This document shows positions 43,308 to 59,528 of a DNA stretch of 64,000 nt, piece after piece. Position 1 is the stretch's first letter. The number at the start of each line of letters is the position of its first letter. Location: the NCBI GenBank assembly GCA_018394315.1, contig CP074575.1, positions 806,001 through 870,000 of the forward strand, read 5' to 3'. The stretch comes from Mycoplasmatota bacterium (GTDB taxonomy: Bacteria; Bacillota_I; Bacilli_A; MAG-NZ). The notes beneath the pieces were generated by a model. It was given only the letters and a program-made list of their open reading frames with translations, was not told the origin of the DNA and searched no databases. Both the position numbers and the translations under genes were made by a program.

Positions 43308-43787
43308 ATGAATATAAAAATAATATCAGTTGGGAAAATAAAAGAAAGATATTTAATTGACGCAATAAAGGAGTATTCAAAAAGGATAATGCCTTATGCG
43401 AAACTATCTTTCATAGAAGTGAAAGACGAACCAACAAAAGATAATGCTTCACCCAAAGATAATTTAAAGATAAAAGAAAAAGAAGCATTGAGAATATTAA
43501 ATCATATTGACTCAAGAGAATATGTTATAGCATTAGCAATTGAAGGGAAACAGTTAAATTCAATAGAACTAGCAAATAAAATAAAAGAATTACCCACTTA
43601 TGGTAACTCTAATATTGCTTTTATTATAGGAGGATCATTAGGGTTAGATAAAGAGATTCTAGATAGATCAAACTTTAAACTATCATTCTCCAAAATGACT
43701 TTCCCCCATCAATTAATGAAGGTAATACTTTTAGAGCAATTATACAGAGCATTTAGAATAAATAATAATGCGCCGTACCATAAATAG
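43308..43787 (+). CDS. rlmH: 23S rRNA (pseudouridine1915-N3)-methyltransferase (orfX)
   Basis: VGKIKE, FIIGGSLG, SFSKMTFPHQL, EQLYRAF...PYHK. Confidence 0.98.
   Translation: MNIKIISVGKIKERYLIDAIKEYSKRIMPYAKLSFIEVKDEPTKDNASPKDNLKIKEKEALRILNHIDSREYVIALAIEGKQLNSIELANKIKELPTYGNSNIAFIIGGSLGLDKEILDRSNFKLSFSKMTFPHQLMKVILLEQLYRAFRINNNAPYHK
43770..43787 (+). repeat. att-like site S1 (rlmH 3' end)
   Basis: GCGCCGTACCATAAATAG. Confidence 0.9.
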
Positions 43788-43810
43788 TTGCAACCTTTGA
43801 ACGAAAAATT

Positions 43811-43852
43811 CGTGCATTTAGAATTATCAATCGCGCGCCGTACCATAAATAA
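43811..43852 (+). repeat. att-like site S2 (copy of rlmH 3' end; core 43835-43852)
   Basis: CGTGCATTTAGAATTATCAATCGC-GCGCCGTACCATAAATAA reads RAFRIINRAPYHK*. Confidence 0.9.
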
Positions 43853-43863
43853 TAGCATCACAT

Positions 43864-43917
43864 AAACAATATTTTCGGTCTTTTCAATTACAGGTGGATG
43901 AACCATATCATAATAAT
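43864..43917 (+). repeat. att-like site S3 (diverged; core 43900-43917)
   Basis: GAACCATATCATAATAAT; reads KQYFRSFQLQVDEPYHN in register with the RlmH C-terminus. Confidence 0.7.
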
Positions 43918-44066
43918 GAAGTTGTAATAATATATTAATATTAAGAATCCACTTGTTTTAGTAAAAGAAATAGGAATGCAACCTTTAGTTGACACATTTC
44001 CAAGTCACGTTGGTGGTGTTCAACTGGATTTACGTATATCATTTTTATGAAAGAGAGGTACTGAAA

Positions 44067-45059
44067 ATGATTTTAGCTGACAAAATAATGTGTTTGAGAA
44101 AACAAAGAGGTTGGTCTCAAGAAGAACTTGCAAATAAGATGAATGTCTCAAGACAATCTGTTTCAAAGTGGGAGAGCGAGAGTGCTATACCTGAAATGGA
44201 CAAGATAGTGATGTTAAGTGAGATATTTAATGTATCAACAGATTATCTTTTAAAGGAAGATATGAAGGATGATTGCATTGAGAAACAAGAAATAATTCAA
44301 CCCCAGAAAGAGGCCGTAGTTTTGAGGAATTATGAAGTTGAATCGTACTTAGAAAGAGTAAAGAAAAATGCAAAATTAATTGCTTTAGGTGTTTCTTTAT
44401 GTATTTTAGGAGCAACTAGTCTTGTGTTTTTATCAGTAATTGGCGAAACTACCGTGCCCAGTATGTCTGAAGAGCTGGCATTGTCTATTGGATTAGTTGT
44501 GTTGTTTGTATTAGTTGCAATAGCTGTAGCATTATTTATAAAGGCAGGTTCTTTAATGAAACAGTTTGAGTATGTCGAAAGTAAAGAAGTTATTTTAAGT
44601 GGTGCAGATAAACAACATGTAAATGAACAAAAACAATATTATACAAGTAAATATCATTTTGGTATTACATTCGGTGTAGTATTAATGATTCTCGGAGTAT
44701 TACCATTGATAATTGGTAGTTTGTACGATATTTCGGTCTATAATTTGATTCTATTATTAACTTTACTCATGGTAATAGTTACCCTAGCTGTACATATAAT
44801 AATTCGAGTAAGTATTAGAAATGATGGGTACGAAACTCTACTGAATTTAGGAGAATATACGAAAGATAACAAACAGATAGAAAAAGTAACTGAGAAAATT
44901 GGAGGTGTTTATTGGCCAATTGTTGTGGCAATTTACTTATTCTGGAGTTTCTATACGAATGATTGGGGAACTACATGGATCGTGTGGCCTGTAGCGGGTG
45001 TACTATTCGCTGTTGTACCAGGAATAAGCTCGTTCTTGATAGATAAAAACAAAGATTAA
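44067..45059 (+). CDS. XRE-family HTH protein with C-terminal membrane domain
   Basis: LRKQRGWSQEELA..MNVSRQSVSKWE..VSTDYLL plus several TMs; ATG follows GAGAGG. Confidence 0.9.
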   Translation: MILADKIMCLRKQRGWSQEELANKMNVSRQSVSKWESESAIPEMDKIVMLSEIFNVSTDYLLKEDMKDDCIEKQEIIQPQKEAVVLRNYEVESYLERVKKNAKLIALGVSLCILGATSLVFLSVIGETTVPSMSEELALSIGLVVLFVLVAIAVALFIKAGSLMKQFEYVESKEVILSGADKQHVNEQKQYYTSKYHFGITFGVVLMILGVLPLIIGSLYDISVYNLILLLTLLMVIVTLAVHIIIRVSIRNDGYETLLNLGEYTKDNKQIEKVTEKIGGVYWPIVVAIYLFWSFYTNDWGTTWIVWPVAGVLFAVVPGISSFLIDKNKD

Positions 45060-45084
45060 ATTATGACAAATGTCATAATTTTTT
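45059..45084 (+). terminator. Intrinsic terminator
   Basis: AATTATGACA-AA-TGTCATAATT followed by TTTT. Confidence 0.65.
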
Positions 45085-45136
45085 AATTTGACAAAGTAAT
45101 AGCAACCAATTCAAGAATAAGCCTTACGAAGAGTAT

Positions 45137-45177
45137 ATCTCAGTTAAAAACGTAATAGAGAATGCTATCATAAAAAA
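45137..45177 (+). repeat. att-like site S4 (degenerate core 45160-45177)
   Basis: ATCTCAGTTAAAAACGTAATAGA-GAATGCTATCATAAAAAA; aligns without gaps to S8 and shares its downstream ~105 bp. Confidence 0.75.
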
Positions 45178-45260
45178 TTGTAAAACATGAGCTGAAATAT
45201 CGCTCATATAGAAAACTCACAGGGTGAATATTCACTCTGTTTTAATTGGAGGAAAAAAAA

Positions 45261-45623
45261 ATGAAGGATATAAAGAATGTTTCAAAATTAATAATAGAAG
45301 CAATAGACTTGAATTTAATTGGGAGTAGTAACCCACTGACATTTCATTATTACGAGAATGATAACTTGTGGAATGACTTGCTTTCATTCGTAAATGATGA
45401 AGATATGATGAGGACGATGATTTTCAACAATGATAAGCTTGGGATATCTCCTGTACATACCTATTGTGCAACTTTGAACTGTAATGATAAGCTAAGAGAT
45501 TTTGAAAAAAATTCAATAGGACGCTTTTGGAAATTTGTTTTTGAAACACTGGGTTATAATAATACTAGAAGGGTATATAGGGTAAAATCAGCTATAACAA
45601 ACGGAAAACTATTCACTCAGTAA
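45261..45623 (+). CDS. Hypothetical protein (120 aa)
   Basis: GGAGG RBS and open frame; its first 8 codons recur at 59611. Confidence 0.65.
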   Translation: MKDIKNVSKLIIEAIDLNLIGSSNPLTFHYYENDNLWNDLLSFVNDEDMMRTMIFNNDKLGISPVHTYCATLNCNDKLRDFEKNSIGRFWKFVFETLGYNNTRRVYRVKSAITNGKLFTQ

Positions 45624-46229
45624 GCATTTATACAATTAACGGTGTTCAGAATATCCAAATCTGTATGAGACTAGATGATTATGAGAACTATGATTGTAAA
45701 GAAGAATTTACTGCTGAATCTTTGGAACAGCTCTCAAATGTTTTAACTGAAGTTAGGTTTCAACACAATATAAATTCTCTTGATGGGTTTACACCCGAGT
45801 ACATATTAAACATAGTTACATTTAGTCCTTTTTGTTGTTAGTCTCTACAGTAAATGCCTGTTCTTCAAAGTATACTAATAAAAACAACTCCTTAAACGGA
45901 GTTTTATATGCATATGGAGAGTTATAAGAACGTTCTTCAGGAATGATACTTTTAAATACTGTTATAATACAATTAAATTGAGAGATAAAAAGGGGTATTG
46001 ACTTAACAGCTACAAATAGGGTTAAAAGGAGAGAAGTATGGAAGATATTTAGAAAACTATTCTTAAAGTTATAGAATGTTCTTGGTGGTTTTTGTCATAA
46101 ATTACCTTTATATGTCTATTATAATTTGAGTTTTGAAGTTTTAAAATGTATAATCAAAAGTAAGTATTTGATTTTTTTTGAGCAAATTTCTTGTTAGATA
46201 ATATAATATTTTGATGCTGAGGTGGTTGT

Positions 46230-49200
46230 ATGGAAAGAAATACGTCTATAGTTGAGGCAATGATTATTAATGCTAGAAATCATTTGCTGGACACGTCTTT
46301 TAATAATAGGATGATAAACTCTAAAATTACCCAAAATAAGGGATTATCATTTAATGTTGAAAACTTGGATAAATTTTACGAACTAGTAGCCGGAAATAAC
46401 TCTTTTACTTTTCTTCCATTAGAAAACAAGAAGACTCCTGATTCTAATTTAACGTCAAGTGACAAAGTTAACTTTGAGTACAATAAGAATATTGAAAAGG
46501 TTGGAATTGTTGATGCTGTTTGTATTTTAGACACTACAAAAAAGCCTTCTATCCTTAGTCTGAAGTCGAGTATTGATGAGGGTGATTCAAAGTTAATGTA
46601 CAAAGTTAAAGGTGAAAGTGCATACATAGAATTAGTAGAAAAAATATATGAGGATATTAAAAAGAATTTTACTAAGTATGGTATTGATGAAGATAACGTA
46701 TATAACAAGGATATGTTATTTTCAGGTTTTAAAAAGAAAATTGAAAACGATATAGATAGTATAAAATTATCTCTTTATATTGCATTCTTAAGTATTCTTA
46801 AGAATGAGGGAATACCAAAGGACTATATATTTTTTGGTGGGATAAATAAAAAAAATGAGATTACTCAAGTTAGTAATCTAATTGATAAATTAATTTTTGC
46901 AGGTACTAAGGGGTTCAAGAAAGCTTTAGTTCCTAAGAAGAATAAAAAAGATATCGCAAATTTACCTTCTCAAGTCGCTGAAAATCTTGAAATTGTTTTT
47001 GTCTCTAATATAGATGAGGCAGTTTTATCTGTGTTTGATATGGTTAATTCTGTGGAACATAATGATTTAAGTAATGACTTTATATTGAATAAGAAAAATC
47101 AACCTCAAAAAATATTTTATGTAAATTATAATCAGGATGATTTAAGATCAAGAATGGAAGAAATTTATTTGAATAGTAAACGTCATATTGAGGAACAAGG
47201 AATAAATATCTTATTTCTTTCATTAGGATTTACGCAATGGAGAAGCCCAGTGAAACCAGAGGAGATTATTAACTCACCGTTAATTTTTATACCTGTGAAT
47301 ATTGAGATTAGTAACTATAAGAACATATATAAAATATCTTACTCTAATTCAGAAATAATTCTTAATAAGTCATTAATAAAAAAATTGGAACTTGAGTTTA
47401 ATATAAACTTTGATGAATTATTATTAGATGTTGTTGATGAACGTGACTTTGAAGTATCTAAATATATTGAAAAATTTATGAAAATTACTAGAGAGTCTGG
47501 GAACGATTTTGGAATGGATTCTTCCGCAGTTCACTTAAGTTTCTATTCATATAGTAAATTCTTAATGTATAACGATTTGGATCCAATAAATTGGGAGGAT
47601 GTTCTTCAAGGTGAAGAGGATAATGTATTAACTGATATTTTTGTTAATCATAAATATCACGAGGTAAGCGATGTAGATGATAAAAAATTAATAGATAGTA
47701 ATAGTGAAATAGATATGATAAACAATGTTCTTGATGCGGATTCATCACAACTACTAGCTATCTCTAAAGTAAATCGTGGGAACTCAATTATAATACAAGG
47801 ACCTCCAGGAACTGGTAAATCTCAAACAATTGTGAACTTGATTTCGGAGGGAATAATTCGAAATAAAAAAATCTTATTCATGAGCGAAAAACTTGCTGCG
47901 ATGGATGTTGTATATAGCCGATTAAGATCTCTGAATCTAAGTCACGTTGCATTACAACTTCATTCAGATAAGGTCAATAAATCGCAAGTAATTAACGAGC
48001 TGCAGAAAACATATTATATGAATAAAATAAACGTTAAGAATACGGATTATGATATCGTAAACAAATTAGATGATCTACGTCGAGAGATAAATAACTATTA
48101 TGAATTACTAAATAAAAAATCCTCGAAGTCTAAATTATCTATTGTAGAGGCTTATCGTTTAATCATTAAATTAGAAAATTACTTCAAAATTAACGACATT
48201 GATGTTTATAAACTTGACGTTCATAACGAGTATTTGATGGAGTCTAGCGAAGTTCAGTTTGATAATTTATTAAGTGATCTTGAATCGTTAGAGATTTTTT
48301 ATAACAAATATGGAACAATGAGTGATAATCCTTTAACAAGTATTTCAATTGAAAAGCCTTTATCACATCATGATATGAATAAATATAAAAGCCAAATTAA
48401 TGAGTTGATTAGTGAGCTTACTTCGGTTACTAATAAGATTGCAATTACTAAAGGGAATCAAACTATAATAGACGATTTATCGATATCAAACATTAAGAAG
48501 ATTTTGGCTGTAATAGAAGATCATTCTTCCTTATTAAATAACATTAACAATATTGATTATCCACTCCTAGCAGAAAATAGAGACTTGTTATACGATATTT
48601 TTATGAACTATTGGGATAGTTCAGAAATTAATAACTTAATAAAGAGCAATATATACAATAACTCTAGTGCTGTTGATGAATTGTTATCTTTATTAGAAGC
48701 AATATCTGAAGAAACAGAGTTTCTTAAAAGAAATAATAGTTTTTTAAAACGAAAAAGTCAAAACTTTAAAATACATAAAGATAAGATTGTTAGCAAATAT
48801 TTTAATAAAGATAATGTCAAACTAAGTGATATCGAGACTTCGCTTTCGTGGCTTTATAAAAAATTGTATGTCAAATATATGTTGATTAAAGAAGACGAGC
48901 TATTAAAGAATATTTTTGGTAAAAGAAGTAGAACTGATAACATTAAAATAATTGCTTCGTTATTTCAGTCTTTAGAAGAAATTGTTAAGTTCCTTGAAAA
49001 AGAGTTAAACTTTGAAAATGCTACAATTGAAACTTATTTCAAGTATTTAATGAATTTTGCAACAAATGATTTCAGTAACTTAAATAGTATAGTTGATATA
49101 ATAAACAATGTGACTGAATCACTTGGAATTGATTTGGAAAGTATATTCAGTTCAAATGAATTTATGACATTCAAAATAAGCGAAATAATCGGTGAGTTTG

Positions 49201-51545
49201 GCATTATCAGAGATGGTATGAATACACTTAATGATATTGTAGCCTTAAAAGAGATTAAGAATGGACTTGATGAGAATATTACTAATGAGTACTTGAGAGA
49301 AATCTTACAAAACGAACTATATTCTAAACATATTTCGAAAGTTTTTTCTTATATTAGATACAATAGTATAGTTCAGGAAATAATGAATTATAATTCTGAA
49401 CTAGAGAATTTTAATGCAATGGTTTTTGATCAAAAGATACGAGAGTTCATATATTTGGATAATAGAAATATCCAAGTGAACAATTTGCAAAATACATTGG
49501 ATGCTCATTTTTATAATGTTTACGATATAAGAAAAGATGAAACATTAAGCGTTGAAAATAAAGACGACATAATTAGCTATCTATTGCAAACTTTTAATAG
49601 AAAATACAATGTACCGACTGTAAAAGAATTATTAAAGAAAGCATTTAATCCAATAATTAAGTTGAAACCAGTTTTTATGATGTCACCAATTTCGGTTTCA
49701 CAGTATTTGGAGCCAATTGTCGGGATGTTCGATATTGTTATATTCGATGAAGCTTCACAGATAAAGCCACAGGATGCATTTGGTTCACTTTTGAGAGCCA
49801 AACAAGTTGTTGTTGTTGGAGATGAGAAACAACTTCCACCTACTAACTTTTTTGAGAGTTACTATGGTATAACAGATACGTTTGTTGAAGATGCAGTATC
49901 TAACTATGAAAGTATTCTAACTCTAATAAGAGGAACTGGGGTTCCACTTACCACTCTAAACTGGCACTACCGCAGTAAACACCATAATCTCATTGAAATA
50001 AGCAATAAACATTTTTATGGTGAAGAATTATCTATCTTCCCTTCTAAGTATAAGAGTAATCCGGATTTTGGAATTACATACGAATATGTAGATGGATCTT
50101 TTGATCGTGGAAAAAGTAGAACGAATTCACTTGAGGCAAGAAGAGTTGCCCAAGAAGTTATTAAACATGCAAGAAATAATCCGAACTTATCATTAGGTGT
50201 AGCGACGATAAACATTAACCAAAGGGATTTGATTTTGTCTGAGATTAAGAAAATGAGAGCAAAAGATCATTCGTTAGACGATTTCTTTAGTGAAGATAGG
50301 AATGAACCATTCTTCGTTAAAAACTTAGAAAGTGTTCAAGGGGATGAAAGAGAAGTTATCTTTGTTAGTATTGGATATGCTAAAGATCAAAATGGAAATA
50401 TTATTCAAAATTTTGGTGCTATTAACCATATAGGTGGGGAAAGAAGACTAAATGTTTTGATGACTAGATCAAGACAAAAATGTGTACTGTTCACGGGACT
50501 AAAAGCTGCTGACTTAGAGGTTGATTACAATACAGCAGAAGGGGTAAAGGTCCTTAAAAAATTTCTTGATTTTGCCGAGAGAACCTCAAGCAATATTGAA
50601 ACATATAAAACGAGCGATACGAAGGAATTTTCAATTGAGATTGCTGAGGAATTAAAAAAACATGGCTATAATGTTACCTTCAATGTAGGAAATTCACATT
50701 ACTTCGTTGATATAGCTGTCCATAATCCAAATGATGAATCTGAATATATTTTAGGAATTGAGTTTGATAACTCTACCTATATTCAATCTAGAACTGCAGG
50801 AGAGCGTGAAAGAATTAGAAATAATATTATGAGATCGAAGGGGTGGAATATATATAAGTTATATATCACTTCGTGGTTTAATAATAGAATAAAAGAAATT
50901 GATAACATTTTAGATTACTTATCTCAAATAGAAACTGAAAAGATCGACTATGGGGAAGTTGTTGAGTTTTATGAAGAACAGGTAAATGTAGCTACTAGAT
51001 TCGGATTCAGGCCATATAAGAAATTTGATAAAAGGATTGAGAACATTAAGAAGTTCGTTAAGGAACCAGTTCAAATTCAGAAATATGTCCTAGATCTTAT
51101 TACAGTAGAATCGCCAATCAGATTAAGTACAATAAATTCAAGAATATTAGAAAATTCTTACTTAGAAACTAAGGAGAAAGTATTCAACGGAAGTGTGAAA
51201 AAAGCTCTTTCCAAACTTCAAGAAAGTGGAGTTATCTATAAAGATGAGGGATTTTATTTCATCAGTGATAGATCTCAATTTATTCCTTTTAAAGATAGGA
51301 GAGCAATTGTTGGTTCTTTTACGTTGGAGGATGTACGTGAGGAAGAATATATTCATGCAATTAGAGAAATTACTAAAAACAGTTTTGGTATAGATACTGA
51401 AAATATTGCAACCATTATTTCAAATTATCTTGGATTTGATAACATTAACTTCGATATTCATGATAGAATCGAAAGACTTTCAATTAGATTGGTTAATTCT
51501 GAAACATTATTTATAGATAAGAACAACAATTTACAGCTTAGATAA
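46230..51545 (+). CDS. DUF4011 - SF1 (DNA2/NAM7-like) helicase - Vsr/REase-like nuclease - DUF3320-like protein (Hhe-type anti-phage), with inserted Lon-protease-like domain
   Basis: LLD..N..N and EEQGINILFLSLGF..W...PLIFIPV (DUF4011); DADSSQ, QGPPGTGKSQT, FDEASQ, GDEKQLPPT, HYRS, VQGDER, RRLNV..TR (SF1); VDIAV..GIEFD..RER.R..GW (nuclease). Confidence 0.88.
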   Translation: MERNTSIVEAMIINARNHLLDTSFNNRMINSKITQNKGLSFNVENLDKFYELVAGNNSFTFLPLENKKTPDSNLTSSDKVNFEYNKNIEKVGIVDAVCILDTTKKPSILSLKSSIDEGDSKLMYKVKGESAYIELVEKIYEDIKKNFTKYGIDEDNVYNKDMLFSGFKKKIENDIDSIKLSLYIAFLSILKNEGIPKDYIFFGGINKKNEITQVSNLIDKLIFAGTKGFKKALVPKKNKKDIANLPSQVAENLEIVFVSNIDEAVLSVFDMVNSVEHNDLSNDFILNKKNQPQKIFYVNYNQDDLRSRMEEIYLNSKRHIEEQGINILFLSLGFTQWRSPVKPEEIINSPLIFIPVNIEISNYKNIYKISYSNSEIILNKSLIKKLELEFNINFDELLLDVVDERDFEVSKYIEKFMKITRESGNDFGMDSSAVHLSFYSYSKFLMYNDLDPINWEDVLQGEEDNVLTDIFVNHKYHEVSDVDDKKLIDSNSEIDMINNVLDADSSQLLAISKVNRGNSIIIQGPPGTGKSQTIVNLISEGIIRNKKILFMSEKLAAMDVVYSRLRSLNLSHVALQLHSDKVNKSQVINELQKTYYMNKINVKNTDYDIVNKLDDLRREINNYYELLNKKSSKSKLSIVEAYRLIIKLENYFKINDIDVYKLDVHNEYLMESSEVQFDNLLSDLESLEIFYNKYGTMSDNPLTSISIEKPLSHHDMNKYKSQINELISELTSVTNKIAITKGNQTIIDDLSISNIKKILAVIEDHSSLLNNINNIDYPLLAENRDLLYDIFMNYWDSSEINNLIKSNIYNNSSAVDELLSLLEAISEETEFLKRNNSFLKRKSQNFKIHKDKIVSKYFNKDNVKLSDIETSLSWLYKKLYVKYMLIKEDELLKNIFGKRSRTDNIKIIASLFQSLEEIVKFLEKELNFENATIETYFKYLMNFATNDFSNLNSIVDIINNVTESLGIDLESIFSSNEFMTFKISEIIGEFGIIRDGMNTLNDIVALKEIKNGLDENITNEYLREILQNELYSKHISKVFSYIRYNSIVQEIMNYNSELENFNAMVFDQKIREFIYLDNRNIQVNNLQNTLDAHFYNVYDIRKDETLSVENKDDIISYLLQTFNRKYNVPTVKELLKKAFNPIIKLKPVFMMSPISVSQYLEPIVGMFDIVIFDEASQIKPQDAFGSLLRAKQVVVVGDEKQLPPTNFFESYYGITDTFVEDAVSNYESILTLIRGTGVPLTTLNWHYRSKHHNLIEISNKHFYGEELSIFPSKYKSNPDFGITYEYVDGSFDRGKSRTNSLEARRVAQEVIKHARNNPNLSLGVATININQRDLILSEIKKMRAKDHSLDDFFSEDRNEPFFVKNLESVQGDEREVIFVSIGYAKDQNGNIIQNFGAINHIGGERRLNVLMTRSRQKCVLFTGLKAADLEVDYNTAEGVKVLKKFLDFAERTSSNIETYKTSDTKEFSIEIAEELKKHGYNVTFNVGNSHYFVDIAVHNPNDESEYILGIEFDNSTYIQSRTAGERERIRNNIMRSKGWNIYKLYITSWFNNRIKEIDNILDYLSQIETEKIDYGEVVEFYEEQVNVATRFGFRPYKKFDKRIENIKKFVKEPVQIQKYVLDLITVESPIRLSTINSRILENSYLETKEKVFNGSVKKALSKLQESGVIYKDEGFYFISDRSQFIPFKDRRAIVGSFTLEDVREEEYIHAIREITKNSFGIDTENIATIISNYLGFDNINFDIHDRIERLSIRLVNSETLFIDKNNNLQLR

Positions 51546-51650
51546 GTTGATACAGATAATTCGATTGTCTCAAAACTCTAATGAAGACTCGTTTAATAGA
51601 TGAAAAGGTAGATGATTACATTTACAAAAATGTTAGAAAAATCTGAGCAA

Positions 51651-51691
51651 CTTACAATCAAGAACGTTACAGCGCGCCGTATCATAAATAA
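51651..51691 (+). repeat. att-like site S5 (core 51674-51691)
   Basis: CTTACAATCAAGAACGTTACAGC-GCGCCGTATCATAAATAA. Confidence 0.9.
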
Positions 51692-52966: not shown

Positions 52967-53007
52967 GTTGCAGCTGAAAACGTTATAACGCGCCTTATCA
53001 TAAATAA
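52967..53007 (+). repeat. att-like site S6 (core 52990-53007)
   Basis: GTTGCAGCTGAAAACGTTATAAC-GCGCCTTATCATAAATAA; starts 4 bp after the GNAT stop. Confidence 0.9.
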
Positions 53008-53294
53008 TGGAAATATGAAGGATGATTATAAGAAAGCGGTAGTACATTAATAGCTGGCTAATCTGCTACAGTGTTGGTAAATTAGAAGGTAGTTCTTCTA
53101 CAACATCTTATAATGAATCATTAGCAGGTGGATTATTGTTGGTTGTGAATAGGCTTTAAAGCAGTTCTTGCTGTGGATTTGTTATCACCTACACTTAACA
53201 CATGGCAATTTAGGAAGAGAAACGTAATATCAATTTAGGGAATATTAGGAATGTCGAGTAAATTTATAAAAGATTTAACTTTACTATAAGAGGC

Positions 53295-53413
53295 TTTAGT
53301 TATATAAGAGAATGGATGTATAATCTGTTAGATGAACTTATTGAGGAAGTAATTTAGTAACTAGTATACTGAAATTGCAACAGTTATGATACAAGTTAGG
53401 TCTAAGACGAGAT
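53295..53413 (+). repeat. 119-bp copy of 63367-63485 (3' end of the epimerase gene plus downstream DNA)
   Basis: 110/119 identical, ungapped, counted by eye. Confidence 0.92.
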
Positions 53414-53432
53414 GTTGAGGAATTTATAACAT

Positions 53433-53473
53433 ATTACAAATAAAAATGTTACGACAATCCATACCTTAAATAG
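53433..53473 (+). repeat. att-like site S7 (degenerate core 53456-53473)
   Basis: ATTACAAATAAAAATGTTACGAC-AATCCATACCTTAAATAG; 16/23 to the S5 left arm, 13/18 to the S1 core. Confidence 0.7.
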
Positions 53474-53601
53474 AGTTAATACATGTTATAAATTCATACA
53501 ATTTTTATAAAATATTATTATAAGGAAACGCCAAGTTTTTTCTTCTTTTGTATGATAAGTCTTGTTAAAAAAATTTTGATTTGAAATAAAAAAAATTCTT
53601 G

Positions 53602-53630
53602 TTGACATTTGTACTGTTTTTATTTAAACT
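53602..53630 (+). promoter_or_regulatory. SigA promoter of the Pro T-box leader
   Basis: TTGACA-17 bp-TAAACT. Confidence 0.75.
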
Positions 53631-53644
53631 GTAAAATATATAAC

Positions 53645-53848
53645 ATGTTGATGAGGACTAGTAAAATTATAATTTGTTTAGAGAGAGTTACTGTTTGGTG
53701 AAAAGTAATAACAAATTAATTTGAACCTACCTTTGAGTGATACTAATTATATCCGGATCCATATCCGTTATCAATGATAAGTGCTTATGAACTAAGGTGG
53801 TACCGCGGAATTTTTCGTCCTTTGAAAAATTCTTGCGGTACTTTTTTT
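53645..53848 (+). ncRNA. T-box riboswitch, proline specifier
   Basis: AGTA, AGAGAG and GGTGAAA stem I motifs; GAA-CCT specifier (53726-53728); AAGGTGGTACCGCG T-box; terminator with T tract. Confidence 0.92.
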
Positions 53849-53867
53849 ATTATAAAAGGAGGAAACC

Positions 53868-53989
53868 CTGAAGAATTAAAAAATAATTAGTAGAGATATT
53901 GACTTTGCTAATTGGTATGTAGATATTGTTGAAGGTTTAGAAAATATACATCAATCAAAGGTTATATGGTTATAAAACCAAACAAGTAA
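53868..53989 (+). pseudogene. proS: 5' relic of archaeal/eukaryotic-type prolyl-tRNA synthetase
   Basis: After AGGAGG: (CTG)KN*KIISRDIDFANWYVDIV, then frameshifted YTSIKGYMVIKP; matches ProRS DF..WY.D.V...Y..VKG.MV.KP. Confidence 0.75.
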
Positions 53990-54032
53990 TTAATATTTAT
54001 ACAAGGAGGAGATTACAATTAGAGAACAAATA

Positions 54033-54816
54033 ATGGCTTCAAATAGAATAGTAATAAAGGTAGGAACTTCTTCCTTGGCATATTCTAATGGCAAATTAAA
54101 TTTACGTCAAATTGAAAAACTATGTCAGGTTATAACTGACTTAAGTAATAGGGGTAAGGAAATCGTTCTAATTACTAGTGGTGCTATTGGCGCTGGAATT
54201 GGTAGATTAGGGTTAAATGATAAACCGAAAAAATTAGAGATGAAACAAGCTACCGCAGCAATAGGACAAGCTTACTTAATGCAAATATACCAACGTTTCT
54301 TTGCTAAATATAGTCAACTATGCGCTCAAATGTTATTAACTAAAGAAATTGTCGATAATCATCTTAAAAGGGAAAACGTTGTAAGAACATTTGAAGAACT
54401 ATTTAAGATAGGTGTTATACCAATAGTAAATGAAAATGATTCTGTTTCTACAGACGAAATAATTGGAGATGTTTTTTCGGATAATGATAATTTGTCGTCA
54501 GTGGTTGCTGTTATAAATAAAGCGGATTTGCTCATTATTTTAAGTAACATTGACGGTGTTTATAAAAAAGTAAATGGTAATCTAAGTAACAATGTTATTA
54601 ACAATGTTGATATTATTACTGAGGAAATATATGGTTATGTATCTAATGAAAAGTCTTCACTTGGCACAGGAGGAATGAGTTCAAAACTAAACGCGGTAAA
54701 ATATGCTATGGACAACTCAGTAGATTCAATTATATGTAATAGTAAGGATTTAAATATTATATATGATTGCTTAGAGGGAAAAATAGTTGGAACTTTTTTT
54801 AAGGCAGGAAAAGAAG

Positions 54817-54827
<11 letters not shown>
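54033..54827 (+). CDS. proB: Glutamate 5-kinase (no PUA domain)
   Basis: VIKVGTSSL, SGAIGAG, PIVNENDSV, DND.LS, GTGGM.SKL. Confidence 0.96.
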
Positions 54828-56058
<1,231 letters not shown>

Positions 56059-56066
56059 GGAATTAA

Positions 56067-56870
56067 ATGAAAAACATTGGCTTTATCGGTTGTGGGAATA
56101 TCGCAACTGCAATGATTGCTGGTATAAGTAAATCAACTTTATTTAAAGAGATTAATATTTATGCTTATGATATTGATCAAGATAAACTTCAAATGATGAA
56201 AAATGATTATGGAATAAACCTTGCTAACAGCAATATTGATTTAGTGAAGGCGGTTGAAGTTGTTGTTCTAGCGGTTAAACCGAATATTTATGAAACAGTA
56301 ACTAACGAAATTAAGAATATTATTTCTAAAGATACAATAATAGTTGTTATTGCTGCAGGAATCTCTCTTGATAATATTAAAATGATGTTTAATAGAGAAT
56401 TAAAATATGTAAGAGCAATGCCGAATACTCCTGCACTAGTTGGAGAAGGGATGACGGCATTATGTTATTCTGAGTTACTTAAGGATAATGAAAAGAAATT
56501 AGTTGCTGACATTTTCAGTTGTTTTGGAAAATATCTAGAACTTTCTGAGGATAAATTTAGTGCATTCACATCAGTATGTGGATCGTCGCCAGCATTTGTT
56601 TATATGTTTATAGAAGCATTAGCGGATGGGGGGGTATTGCTAGGGTTACAACGACATCAAATATATGATATGGTTTCTCAAGCAATTTTAGGATCAGCGA
56701 AAATGGTTCTAGAAACTAAAGAACATCCAGGAAAACTAAAGGATAATGTTTGCTCACCTGGAGGAACAGCTATTGAAGGTGTTGCTGAACTTGAAAGAAA
56801 CAATTTTAGGAATGCTGTAATTAGTGCTGTAATTAAAACCGGAGAGAAATCAAGAACAATAAATAATTAA
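56067..56870 (+). CDS. proC: Pyrroline-5-carboxylate reductase
   Basis: IGFIGCGN, LAVKP, RAMPNTP, GSSPAF, VCSPGGT. Confidence 0.97.
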   Translation: MKNIGFIGCGNIATAMIAGISKSTLFKEINIYAYDIDQDKLQMMKNDYGINLANSNIDLVKAVEVVVLAVKPNIYETVTNEIKNIISKDTIIVVIAAGISLDNIKMMFNRELKYVRAMPNTPALVGEGMTALCYSELLKDNEKKLVADIFSCFGKYLELSEDKFSAFTSVCGSSPAFVYMFIEALADGGVLLGLQRHQIYDMVSQAILGSAKMVLETKEHPGKLKDNVCSPGGTAIEGVAELERNNFRNAVISAVIKTGEKSRTINN

Positions 56871-56933
56871 AACTTATTATAATAGAACCACCTGATCTGT
56901 AAACCCTTTTATGAACTTATTTATTATAATTTA

Positions 56934-56962
56934 TTGACATTGAAGTCATGGAGTGCTAAAAT
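56934..56962 (+). promoter_or_regulatory. SigA promoter of the His T-box leader
   Basis: TTGACA-17 bp-TAAAAT with extended TG. Confidence 0.75.
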
Positions 56963-56984
56963 CTTTTTAATTAATCATTAGTTA

Positions 56985-57267
56985 AAAGCTTTGATAAGAA
57001 ATAGTATTCATTTCAATTCTTAAAAAGAGAGTTGCCGTTTGGTGAGAGGCACATAAGAATCTATGGAGAACACATCTTTGAGCTGTGAATTCAAACGTTT
57101 ATCTAGTAGAGTTCATCGGTATCCTTGCAACCGTTATATTGCTAGAGTATAAGCATTTTGCCGTACTCGAAAAGGTTAATATCGTGAGATATTAATAAAA
57201 TAGAAGTGGGACCACGTGAGTATAGCTTTCGTCTTCTAGTATTGACTAGAGAGGGAAGCTTTTTTTA
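56985..57267 (+). ncRNA. T-box riboswitch, probable histidine specifier
   Basis: AGTA, AGAGAG and GGTGAGA motifs; GAA-CAC (57071-57073); antiterminator AAGTGGGACCACG; terminator ending GGAAGC plus T tract. Confidence 0.85.
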
Positions 57268-57312
57268 TTTCCTTTTGACTCATGATTAAATAAAGAAAAG
57301 GGAGATAGAAAA

Positions 57313-58107
57313 ATGAAAAAATTATTATTAATATTATCGCTAATGTTTGTAGTTACATTAACAGCATGTTCTAAAGAGGAAAAAATCGATTTGAAAGAAA
57401 TCGAAGAAAGAGGATATATCATCATGGGATTAGATGATACATTTGCCCCAATGGGTTTCAGAGATGAGTCAAATGAAATCGTTGGTTTTGATGTAGATTT
57501 AGCTAAAGAGTTATTTGGATCTACGGGTATTAAACTTAGGTTTCAGCCAATCGACTGGGCAATGAAAGAAACTGAATTAAACAATGGTAACATTGATATG
57601 ATTTGGAATGGTTATACGATTACACAAGAGAGAAAAGAAAAGGTTAACTTTTCAACACCATATATAAGTAGCAGACAAGTGATTATCACTCTAATGGATA
57701 GTGAAATAGATAAAATTAGCGACCTTGAAGGTAAAGTATTAGCTACACAAACTGGTTCTAGTTCATTGAATGCAATTACTGAATCAGAAGAATTAATGAG
57801 TTTTGTAAGTGAAGATGAAATTATTTTGTTTGGGTCATATAACGAAGCATTTATTGATCTTAAAGCAAGAAGAATAAATGCAATTGTTGCTGATGAAATT
57901 CTAGTTCGCTATTATATGAGTTCAAATGAAGAAACTGAATATAAAATTTTAGATGATGATTTAGGTTATGATGAATTCGGAATCGGATTAAGAAAAGAGT
58001 CAACAGATTTATTAGAATTAATTAACAACTTGTTAGATGAGATGAAACAAGACAAAAGAGCTGCTAAAATTTCCGTTAAGTGGTTTGCTGAAAATATAGT
58101 CGAATGA
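57313..58107 (+). CDS. Polar amino acid ABC transporter substrate-binding lipoprotein (likely His)
   Basis: Lipobox LTAC; DDTFAPMGF, GFDVDLA, IWNGYTIT.ER. Confidence 0.92.
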   Translation: MKKLLLILSLMFVVTLTACSKEEKIDLKEIEERGYIIMGLDDTFAPMGFRDESNEIVGFDVDLAKELFGSTGIKLRFQPIDWAMKETELNNGNIDMIWNGYTITQERKEKVNFSTPYISSRQVIITLMDSEIDKISDLEGKVLATQTGSSSLNAITESEELMSFVSEDEIILFGSYNEAFIDLKARRINAIVADEILVRYYMSSNEETEYKILDDDLGYDEFGIGLRKESTDLLELINNLLDEMKQDKRAAKISVKWFAENIVE

Positions 58108-58108
58108 T

Positions 58109-58750
58109 ATGGATTACTATTTAACTTTAATTAATCAATTATTTCTAGGTGCATTAGTAACACTTAAGTTCTTTATCTTAATTGGAATTGTGTCACTGTT
58201 CTTTGGCCTATTAGTATCGATACTTGGTCTTGTTTCAAATAGTTTCATTAAAAGAATAATAAATATATATGTACTTATTATGAGAGGTACCCCATTACTT
58301 TTACAACTTATTACTATTTATTTTGGCTTACCTATAATTGGTTTAAGCTTAAGTAGAACTGTCGCTGTGTTAATTGCATTTGCACTAAATTACTCAGCAT
58401 ACTTTAGTGAAATATTTCGAGGTGGATTCGAAAGCATCGATAAAGGACAGTTCGAAGCTGCGTTTGTACTTGGAATGAAAAAAAGAGATACATATAAGAA
58501 AATAGTGTTACCACAAGTGATTAAGAGAGTATTACCTTCAATTTCAAATGAGATAATAACTCTTGTAAAAGATACTTCTTTAATTTATGTTGTTGGATTA
58601 GGAGAATTATTAAGAATGGGTAAAATAGCCTCAAATAGAGATGCTTCACTAGTTCCATTGTTGTTCGTTGGATTGATATATCTCTTAATTATCTATGCAT
58701 TAACTAAATTATTAAAGAGATGGGAGCGCTCGTATGGATACTTTGAGTAA
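58109..58750 (+). CDS. Amino acid ABC transporter permease
   Basis: RGTPLLLQL, AYFSEIFRGG..SIDKGQFEAA, LVKDTSL. Confidence 0.95.
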   Translation: MDYYLTLINQLFLGALVTLKFFILIGIVSLFFGLLVSILGLVSNSFIKRIINIYVLIMRGTPLLLQLITIYFGLPIIGLSLSRTVAVLIAFALNYSAYFSEIFRGGFESIDKGQFEAAFVLGMKKRDTYKKIVLPQVIKRVLPSISNEIITLVKDTSLIYVVGLGELLRMGKIASNRDASLVPLLFVGLIYLLIIYALTKLLKRWERSYGYFE

Positions 58751-59399
58751 TATTGTTGAAATAAATAACTTAACAAAAAAGTTTGGCGAAAAGATTATCT
58801 TTAAAGAGCTCTCAATCAATTTCAAGGAAAAGGAAATAACAGTTATACTTGGTCCATCAGGTATTGGTAAAACTACTCTTTTGAGGTGTATATGTGGACT
58901 AGAGACAGTAAGTGATGGAGAAATAACAATAAATAATCAACCATACATAAAGTTTGGAGAAGTAGTAGACAAAAAAAATACACAGAAAGTTTTAAATGAT
59001 GTAGGCCTTGTTTTTCAAGACTTTAATTTGTTTCCTCATTTAACAGTGTACGAAAATATTAGAATTATAGTAAAAGATGATAAACTAGTTAAATACTGGC
59101 TAACTGAACTAGGAATGTTTGAAAAAAAAGATCTATATCCATTCGAGTTATCAGGGGGACAAAAACAGCGTGTAGCAATAGCTAGAGCGTTAATATTAAA
59201 ACCAAAATTACTGTGTTTTGATGAACCAACTTCAAATCTAGACTCATCTTTAAAAATGAACATAGCAAGCATTATTAAAAAGATTTCAAAAACTGGAACT
59301 TCAGTAATTATCATTACACATGACGAGTTATTCGCTGATGCTGTTGCTGATAATATAATAAAGTTTACTGACCTTTCTACTAATGTTAGTTGTAGATGA
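58734..59399 (+). CDS. Amino acid ABC transporter ATP-binding protein
   Basis: GPSGIGKT, LSGGQKQR, FDEPTS. Confidence 0.95.
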   Translation: MDTLSNIVEINNLTKKFGEKIIFKELSINFKEKEITVILGPSGIGKTTLLRCICGLETVSDGEITINNQPYIKFGEVVDKKNTQKVLNDVGLVFQDFNLFPHLTVYENIRIIVKDDKLVKYWLTELGMFEKKDLYPFELSGGQKQRVAIARALILKPKLLCFDEPTSNLDSSLKMNIASIIKKISKTGTSVIIITHDELFADAVADNIIKFTDLSTNVSCR

Positions 59400-59487
59400 T
59401 ATGAGATAAGGGCTTAAAATTACATGGAATTAATAAAATTAATCAGTGAAAAAGTAGTAAGTTATATTAGTATAAATTATCTGACAT

Positions 59488-59528
59488 GTTGCACCTGAAA
59501 ACGTTACAAAGCGCCGTATCATAAATAA
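59488..59528 (+). repeat. att-like site S8 (core 59511-59528)
   Basis: GTTGCACCTGAAAACGTTACAAA-GCGCCGTATCATAAATAA. Confidence 0.9.

Follow-up and report, generated by a model that had tools for sequence, protein, structure and literature searches.

A complete LonA-type proteolytic domain lies within the DUF4011 domain of a predicted anti-phage helicase-nuclease encoded in a 64,000-nucleotide stretch of Mycoplasmatota bacterium contig CP074575.1 (assembly GCA_018394315.1, positions 806,001 to 870,000 of the forward strand; hereafter the window). The gene (window coordinates 46230–51545, forward strand, as are all features described here unless noted) is a single open frame of 1771 amino acids (aa), and profile searches with Pfam and PADLOC confirm it as a putative Hhe/PDC-S37-type helicase-nuclease, with the architecture DUF4011[Lon_C insert]-superfamily 1 (SF1) helicase-MTES_1575 (Vsr-like) nuclease. 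PADLOC scores the protein at 1139 bits for PDC-S37 (aa 288–1760) and 495 bits for Hhe, and the Pfam order along the chain is DUF4011 / Lon_C / DUF4011, then AAA_11, AAA_12 and MTES_1575. The N-terminal part of DUF4011 (aa ~10–62; coordinates 46257–46415) ends in an F-x-F-L strand and has a mean identity of 79% within the clade of fusion proteins; the C-terminal part (aa ~293–386; 47106–47387) follows the insert, and DUF4011 (PF13195) scores 89.7 bits over both stretches against a cut-off of 22.2. The first part of the helicase (AAA_11; 47718–48029) carries the Walker A motif GPPGTGKS (aa 524–531), and in the second, Upf1-type part (AAA_12; 49527–50579) the motifs DEASQ, GDEKQLPP, HYRS and QGDERE are intact; the Hhe helicase is itself assigned to the SF1_Upf1 group (10.1101/2024.02.29.582594). 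The MTES_1575/Vsr-like nuclease domain (50628–50918) scores 76.4 bits against a cut-off of 38.2. A chance match or a frameshift artefact is ruled out by the E-values, the single open frame and the existence of 13 fusion members.

The initial annotation, made from the sequence alone, had proposed that a Lon C-terminal proteolytic domain splits the DUF4011 of this protein, and the limits it gave are off by no more than a few codons. The domain is complete, spanning aa ~86–270 (46485–47039), and is supported by Pfam, by solved relatives and by alignment with the LonA of the host. Pfam Lon_C matches aa 80–265 with an E-value of 3.1e-13 (50.2 bits against a cut-off of 21.1; profile positions 16–199 of 205), a LonA family profile matches at 1.5e-13, and the closest solved relatives are the LonA proteolytic domains of B. 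subtilis (5.5e-9) and E. coli (1.4e-8). The insert is 24% identical to the LonA domain of the host in an alignment of 176 columns that has one gap, of two residues (hhalign probability 97.7%). It is colinear with LonA, whereas RadA is gapped at two places; two LonB-type models come near the LonA score in some clade members. An origin from RadA or BrxL is disfavoured by the gap pattern and the scores. No Lon AAA+ module was found in the 1771-aa chain by the Pfam scan.

Searches for small or viral proteins resembling the insert gave little. ESM Atlas leads all scored below 0.9 and fell mostly in Lon_C clusters. One Atlas cluster (a 207-aa representative and 153 members, with Uroviricota the commonest known phylum) scored 0.87 against the insert and is a lead only, to small phage Lon-like proteins. 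Phage records gave 11 matches, all below 40% identity, the annotated ones being lon, radA or hypothetical, and none of 583 candidate stretches on viral contigs encodes a relative.

All statements on the active site of the insert come from alignments. Asp174-x-x-Ser177 (46749–46760) matches the LonA KDGPSAG motif at its Asp and its catalytic Ser, with Gly, Pro and Gly replaced, and Lys220 (46887–46889), 43 residues past Ser177, corresponds to the Lon catalytic Lys. Both residues fall on the dyad in the LonA alignment, in keeping with their initial assignment as the Ser-Lys pair, and the erosion noted around them is equally evident: DGPSAG reads DIDSIK, TGE reads FGG and IGG reads VSN. The Thr of the LonA TGE motif is a helper of the catalytic Lys, and its equivalent at position 202 (46833–46835) is Phe.

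Mean identity among nine full-length fusion members is 54% for the insert, 86% and 81% for the first and second parts of the helicase, 72% for the nuclease and 38% for a variable helical region. Comparison of the window with the member from genome G001 gave ratios of non-synonymous to synonymous substitution (dN/dS) of 0.22 for the insert (136 codons), 0.008 for the first part of the helicase and 0.074 for the other, 0.089 for the nuclease and 0.31 for the helical region. Judged by these values, the insert is under purifying selection. We then took the 46 positions conserved in at least 90% of 29 LonA sequences and counted as kept those retained in at least 75% of 12 inserts. Nine are kept (G92, G118, D174, S177, S188, G203, K220, A224 and N238) and 37 are lost, including HxHxPxGAxPK, the Thr of TGE, IGG and TGxLGxVMxES, a helix that forms part of the Lon subunit interface. 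The presence of Asp, Ser and Lys together among the nine has a hypergeometric p of 0.0055 (0.035 for the dyad alone), values that are indicative only, as the columns were picked post hoc and the kin are non-independent.

The Asp174 equivalent is Asp in ten of the 12 inserts and Glu in two; Ser177 is kept in ten and Lys220 in 11 (Arg in P0003), such that both dyad residues are present in 10/12. Within the loop at residues 163–179, Asp174 and Ser177 are the only LonA residues remaining. Position 202 is Ile, Leu or Phe in all 12 inserts and Thr in none, and the Gly, Pro and Gly flanking the Ser and the GG ahead of the Lys helix are gone from the clade. The residue preceding the catalytic Ser is never Pro, a LonA signature (PMC9569914), and is Asp, as in LonB, in 2/12. 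The full-length member P0003 has Ser replaced by Ala and Lys by Arg while its helicase is conserved, and is seen on three contigs in two sources; in G001, on a separate branch, the Ser is replaced by Ile. A further member, L062, has Ser and Lys both present. The G001 gene is divided between contigs C98 and C90, and at the end of C90 (L002 5087–5321), past the homologous stretch, the frame continues into unrelated sequence, possibly a misassembly.

Residues fixed specifically within the clade occur at 99–107, 164–167 and 203–212, and by alignment these segments map to the hairpin and two loops described as the Lon substrate site (PMC9569914). Because the new clade residues fall on substrate-site elements, the cleft looks re-specified rather than decayed. 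Basic and acidic residues in the insert are balanced as in LonA.

The nuclease domain has been remodelled in the same clade. We compared ten clade members with 83 relatives having an MTES_1575-type domain (of 149 examined), and the acidic residues D1494, E1511 and D1513 are kept in all ten. His1518, present in 73/83 relatives, is found in only three clade members, and Gly1514 and Trp1545, invariant in the relatives (83/83 each), are found in none; Arg1524 (79/83 in relatives) and Ser1546 (82/83) are replaced as well. The motif ECDG-x-x-YH...RDRDR...IWS of the relatives reads EFDN-x-x-Yx...SERER...xFIT in the clade, and the remodelled domain is still conserved, with the dN/dS of 0.089 given above. 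In E. coli Hhe, the E1731A substitution is reported to abolish defence (10.1101/2022.06.16.496414), and from profile positions E1731 would correspond to E1511 here. The initial proposal that the insert triggers the nuclease is less safe in view of the altered motif.

The fusion is rare. A profile of aa 1–455 searched against 1.84 billion cluster representatives gave 5078 matches at E ≤0.001, and among the best 150 of these one (P0005, 711 bits) spans the whole profile, 148 match via DUF4011 (145 bits or less) and one consists of three Lon domains and has no DUF4011. Word-based and DNA searches bring the distinct fusion members to 13 (P0001, P0003–P0005, P0155–P0159, P0172, G001, L019 and L062), the named ones coming from Izemoplasma-type genomes. 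The ten members included in our alignment (A6) are 53–60% identical to the window's protein and that of G001 is 87% identical. The fusion is present in 2/8 genomes of the window's order, 3/158 of the order of G041 and 4/399 scored genomes of the class, with two further genomes unscored; the architecture is as unusual as had been supposed. A first metagenome scan found no fusion and a second found at least two fusion loci.

The survey of DUF4011 homologues that the initial annotation had suggested shows the insertion site to be variable, with a Lon domain in the fusion clade and mostly low-complexity sequence in the other long inserts examined. The spacing between the DUF4011 anchors in 128 proteins with both anchors placed (four of them fusions) has a median of 106, the fusions being at 294 and the next longest at 223. 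The site is taken to be a permissive loop because the long non-Lon inserts are mostly acidic and of low complexity; no Pfam domain was found in the seven long inserts examined, which are of low complexity except for that of P0051, possibly helical.

The whole Lon domain is kept in all 13 known members (187–190 residues where fully assembled), and the inserts form one clade (support 100/98) on a long stem, separate from the sampled LonA sequences. They are most simply explained by one old capture, from a donor that is LonA-like by colinearity. Recent capture from the host's own lon is ruled out by the 24% identity and by the long stem. Of the relatives lacking the insert, the closest has 49% identity in its helicase core, and those from the Izemoplasmatales search are 33–37% identical. 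Among proteins of 77–335 aa, the only close match to the insert is P0172, the N-terminal part of the same fusion.

Several related proteins were observed in passing. G041 has a second Lon_C-like match besides its LonA and its fusion, in a frame of 199 aa at the end of a contig (G041:C167:23–550). The window's genome (G000) encodes a second related helicase of ~1220 aa without a Lon insert (G000:C1:1991439–1994630; L015 3440–7129, reverse strand; PDC-S37 362 bits), with an N-terminus that we take to resemble an HRDC domain. Genome G009 encodes a 1947-aa DUF4011 helicase (L016 4932–10781, reverse strand) with a 400-aa N-terminal extension that has no Pfam match; its Cys...His pattern presumably resembles a transglutaminase/papain fold, and peptidase-like modules may thus recur in the DUF4011 helicase family. 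P0019, P0021, P0034, P0040 and P0043 form a group of DUF4011 helicases that are extended at the N-terminus by a TPR-like segment (weak Pfam TPR matches for P0040), a possible further accessory sensor.

The reading that we tentatively favour, although it falls somewhat short of probable, is that the insert has become a peptide-binding cleft of new specificity, through which the helicase-nuclease is gated and for which catalysis is dispensable. Homology and distribution show that a single-gene helicase-nuclease of the anti-phage Hhe/PDC-S37 type took up a LonA proteolytic domain once, into the permissive DUF4011 loop. As conservation shows, the domain then dropped the motifs for ring-shaped processive proteolysis, while the Asp/Ser/Lys centre of the cleft persisted and new residues, cleft-lining by alignment, were fixed. 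It may now serve as a peptide-recognition module with weak or dispensable catalysis, whose ligand would be one specific peptide, either a phage protein (a bait) or a stretch of the fusion protein itself (a latch); binding would add a protein input to the helicase or hold it in check. The helicase would sense phage nucleic-acid metabolism and drive the C-terminal nuclease domain, such that the helicase-nuclease would be the core of the system and the Lon fold an accessory gate. We favour a binding gate since none of the inserts retains the helper Thr and the dyad is dispensed with in at least one lineage that is otherwise intact. Also in line with this reading are the purifying selection on the insert, the loss of 37 LonA columns, the new clade residues on the substrate-site elements, the rlmH cassette context and the acidic nuclease residues kept in all ten members. 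Hhe is described as a one-gene anti-phage system (10.1101/2022.06.16.496414) whose triggers look to be functions of phage DNA metabolism and not individual proteins (PMC11482910), and with BrxL there is already an example of a defence protein whose Lon domain is non-catalytic (PMC10164562).

Several observations weigh against this reading. That Asp, Ser and Lys are singled out for retention fits kept catalysis at least as well, and the Ser to Ile change in G001, a genome 55% complete, is close to the end of a contig and may be erroneous. Resemblance to the host target would be expected of a bait, yet the insert is only 24% identical to host Lon. No ligand or partner gene was identified, and across six loci no gene is shared beside the fusion and no recognised defence gene lies next to it; only the window and G001 loci are at rlmH. 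The initial annotation had also raised a decoy for phage Lon inhibitors of the PinA type, which would be one sub-case of the binding gate. PinA reportedly leaves the Lon peptidase site unblocked. It is a Lon inhibitor of T4 (10.1101/2024.02.24.581662), and E. coli Hhe is reported not to restrict T4 (10.1101/2022.06.16.496414); with these points, the low identity to host Lon and the DNA-metabolism-like triggers of Hhe, nothing ties the insert to PinA and this sub-case has no specific support.

The main rival, and a close one, has the insert act as a Ser-Lys protease that is site-specific, conditional and free of any AAA+ module, similar to CalpL; we consider this possible but on balance unlikely. 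The helicase would sense phage nucleic acid, or oligomerise on it, and the Lon domain would then cut a host target or its own chain, a cleavage that may supplement or replace the eroded nuclease site of the clade. Asp174, Ser177 and Lys220 are indeed preferentially kept, each with one or two changes on the tree against four to eight at the neighbouring positions 175, 176, 178 and 179, and P0003 has lost both dyad residues together; the nuclease changes at His1518, Gly1514 and Trp1545 point the same way, as does CalpL, whose Lon domain has a Ser-Lys dyad but no AAA module and is reported to act as an antiviral effector (10.1101/2024.05.08.593097). The hydrophobic residue in place of the TGE Thr in 12/12 inserts and the loss of Gly and Pro around the Ser argue against it, as does the loss of the Ser in one or two lineages in which the remaining gene is conserved. 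The Ser177 codons are of both classes (AGT and TCN), but both are also used in LonA itself, and 38% of insert columns match Ser177 in conservation, such that its retention could be structural; moreover, no conserved candidate substrate gene lies beside the fusion in the six loci. The initial pairing of a divergent protease with a non-catalytic module was the right one, and either may hold: the dyad is preferentially kept, yet both its residues are lost in P0003 and the helper Thr is absent from all 12 inserts. A broader proposal, that the host's housekeeping Lon domain was recruited either as a helicase-activated site-specific protease replacing an eroding nuclease (an effector swap) or as an integrated bait for a phage protein that targets the cleft, is possible but less likely than not.

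It is improbable that the insert is a structural module for self-association of the helicase or for nucleic-acid binding, as with the Lon-like domains of BrxL and RadA, the first of which is described as mediating ring-ring contacts and the second as forming DNA-binding hexamers (PMC10164562, PMC12839542). The many clade-invariant lysines (K144, K145, K149, K227, K236, K239 and K240) would suit such a module, but the basic/acidic balance is that of LonA, the colinearity and best scores are with LonA rather than with the gapped RadA, the TGxLGxVMxES helix motif is lost, and the retention of Asp, Ser and Lys is left unexplained. Less probable again is that the insert is a passenger tolerated in a permissive loop and kept just folded, or that the whole clade is no longer defensive. 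The DUF4011 site does accept long low-complexity inserts elsewhere (anchor spacing 72–223), the dN/dS of the insert is well above the 0.008–0.074 of the helicase, and two genomes share one housekeeping slot, between asnS and rmuC. Against this, the whole domain is kept in every known member, no close relative without the insert was found (the next is at most 49% identical in the helicase core), and the patchy distribution is that of accessory genes, with the asnS-rmuC slot empty in 11/11 other genomes.

The fusion gene lies in a cassette downstream of rlmH, and this location lends independent support to the defence reading; together with the PADLOC scores it agrees with the initial description of a defence-type host protein. 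The last 18 bases of rlmH (gene at 43308–43787; SPOUT_MTase E 1e-57) form the core of an attachment (att) site (43770–43787), and further copies of this 3′ end are present at 43835–43852, 51674–51691, 52990–53007 and 59511–59528. As the second and third copies flank the gene, it sits in a cassette at 43853–51691; the fourth closes a cassette with a single GNAT gene and the fifth closes the next cassette. A degenerate pattern of the core gives five zero-mismatch matches (at 43770, 43835, 51674, 52990 and 59511), as compared to 0.64 expected by chance at up to three mismatches, and 0/100 shuffles reach five. At the rlmH 3′ end 65 bases are duplicated head to tail (43749–43878; 72% identical), which places two att cores 65 bases apart. 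The cassette also contains an HTH_3 gene (Pfam; 43989–45059) coding for a protein with hydrophobic C-terminal helices, not seen in the other fusion loci examined, and a 125-aa open reading frame (45246–45623) without a Pfam, PADLOC or Atlas match. The cassette at 53008–59528 holds housekeeping-type cargo, with proline-biosynthesis-type genes (54033–56870, names read from sequence) and an amino-acid ABC transporter, and the leader upstream of these genes, near 53790–53850, has what we take to be a T-box-like motif. A further att-like core lies at G000:C1 876135 (forward strand), ~10 kb past the window's final copy, and two more, separated by 0.9 kb, lie far from rlmH at 265504 and 266426 (reverse strand).

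The cargo order differs in G001, in which the GNAT cassette directly follows rlmH and the fusion gene is further on. Two of three same-family genomes examined have rlmH att arrays holding AbiE, PDC-S06, PDC-S73 and a Cap4-STAND-like gene (L059 1260–15766 with six cores and L060 2102–19140 with four, with defence cargo in several cassettes), and the third has the rlmH site only. Cassettes at rlmH of the staphylococcal cassette chromosome (SCC) type are a known hotspot for defence genes (PMC11470126), and by these repeats SCC-like arrays appear to extend to the family of the window's organism. No match to a Ccr-type large serine recombinase (PF07508) was found in G000 (93.6% complete). Elsewhere, the fusion gene lies between asnS and rmuC in G041 and G132, and the other members are among unrelated genes; the neighbour pattern fits a stand-alone accessory gene and is no proof of a role in defence.

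The host protein and its cassette are of known kinds, and in the literature searched the Lon insertion and the joint remodelling of the protease and nuclease sites appear to be new. We found no description of a DUF4011-Lon fusion in that literature, which did not extend to subscription papers and bioRxiv supplements; in the accessible texts DUF4011 and Lon protease were mentioned together only in separate table rows, for Hhe and BrxL, and PDC-S37 is not named in the main text of the PADLOC-candidate preprint. DUF4011 is without a known function, and the Hhe-type mechanism is unsettled in the same literature. A natural insertion with the dyad, the dyad-less variants P0003 and G001 and the parallel change of the nuclease offer handles on what senses and what kills in a widespread family. 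If the insert is a bait, it would be a bacterial integrated decoy pointing to Lon-targeting phage proteins in little-studied Bacilli, and if it cuts, it would join an SF1 helicase with a protease effector in a new way; the general weight is limited by the narrow range of one clade.

Among known systems, the closest are Hhe and PDC-S37, with which the gene shares a single-gene format of DUF4011, Upf1-type SF1 helicase and MTES_1575/Vsr-like nuclease. It differs in having a folded 185-aa Lon domain in place of the low-complexity DUF4011 loop and an altered nuclease motif. The arrangement of tandem cassettes with defence cargo between rlmH 3′-end repeats is that of SCC and pseudo-SCC elements (PMC11470126), although the host is outside the staphylococci and G000 gave no match to the PF07508 recombinase. 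LonA shares the whole colinear domain with Asp, Ser and Lys in register and 43 residues from Ser to Lys, but the fusion protein lacks the Lon N-domain and the AAA+ module and has lost 37 of the 46 conserved columns. CalpL is alike in being an antiviral-type protein with an AAA-less Lon domain and a Ser-Lys dyad; it is described as being activated by cA4 via a SAVED domain and as having a dedicated substrate, CalpT (10.1101/2024.05.08.593097), whereas the fusion protein has no SAVED match, no conserved partner gene (no constant neighbours of the calpT/calpS type) and members in which the dyad is lost. BrxL similarly joins a Lon fold to a nucleic-acid-acting ATPase, and its PADLOC model matches the Lon stretch only (E 1.4e-12). 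However, BrxL is reported to be dyad-less, with an MCM-type AAA+ core and a terminal Lon domain (PMC10164562, PMC12839542), whereas in the fusion protein the dyad is mostly kept, the Lon domain is internal and the ATPase belongs to SF1.

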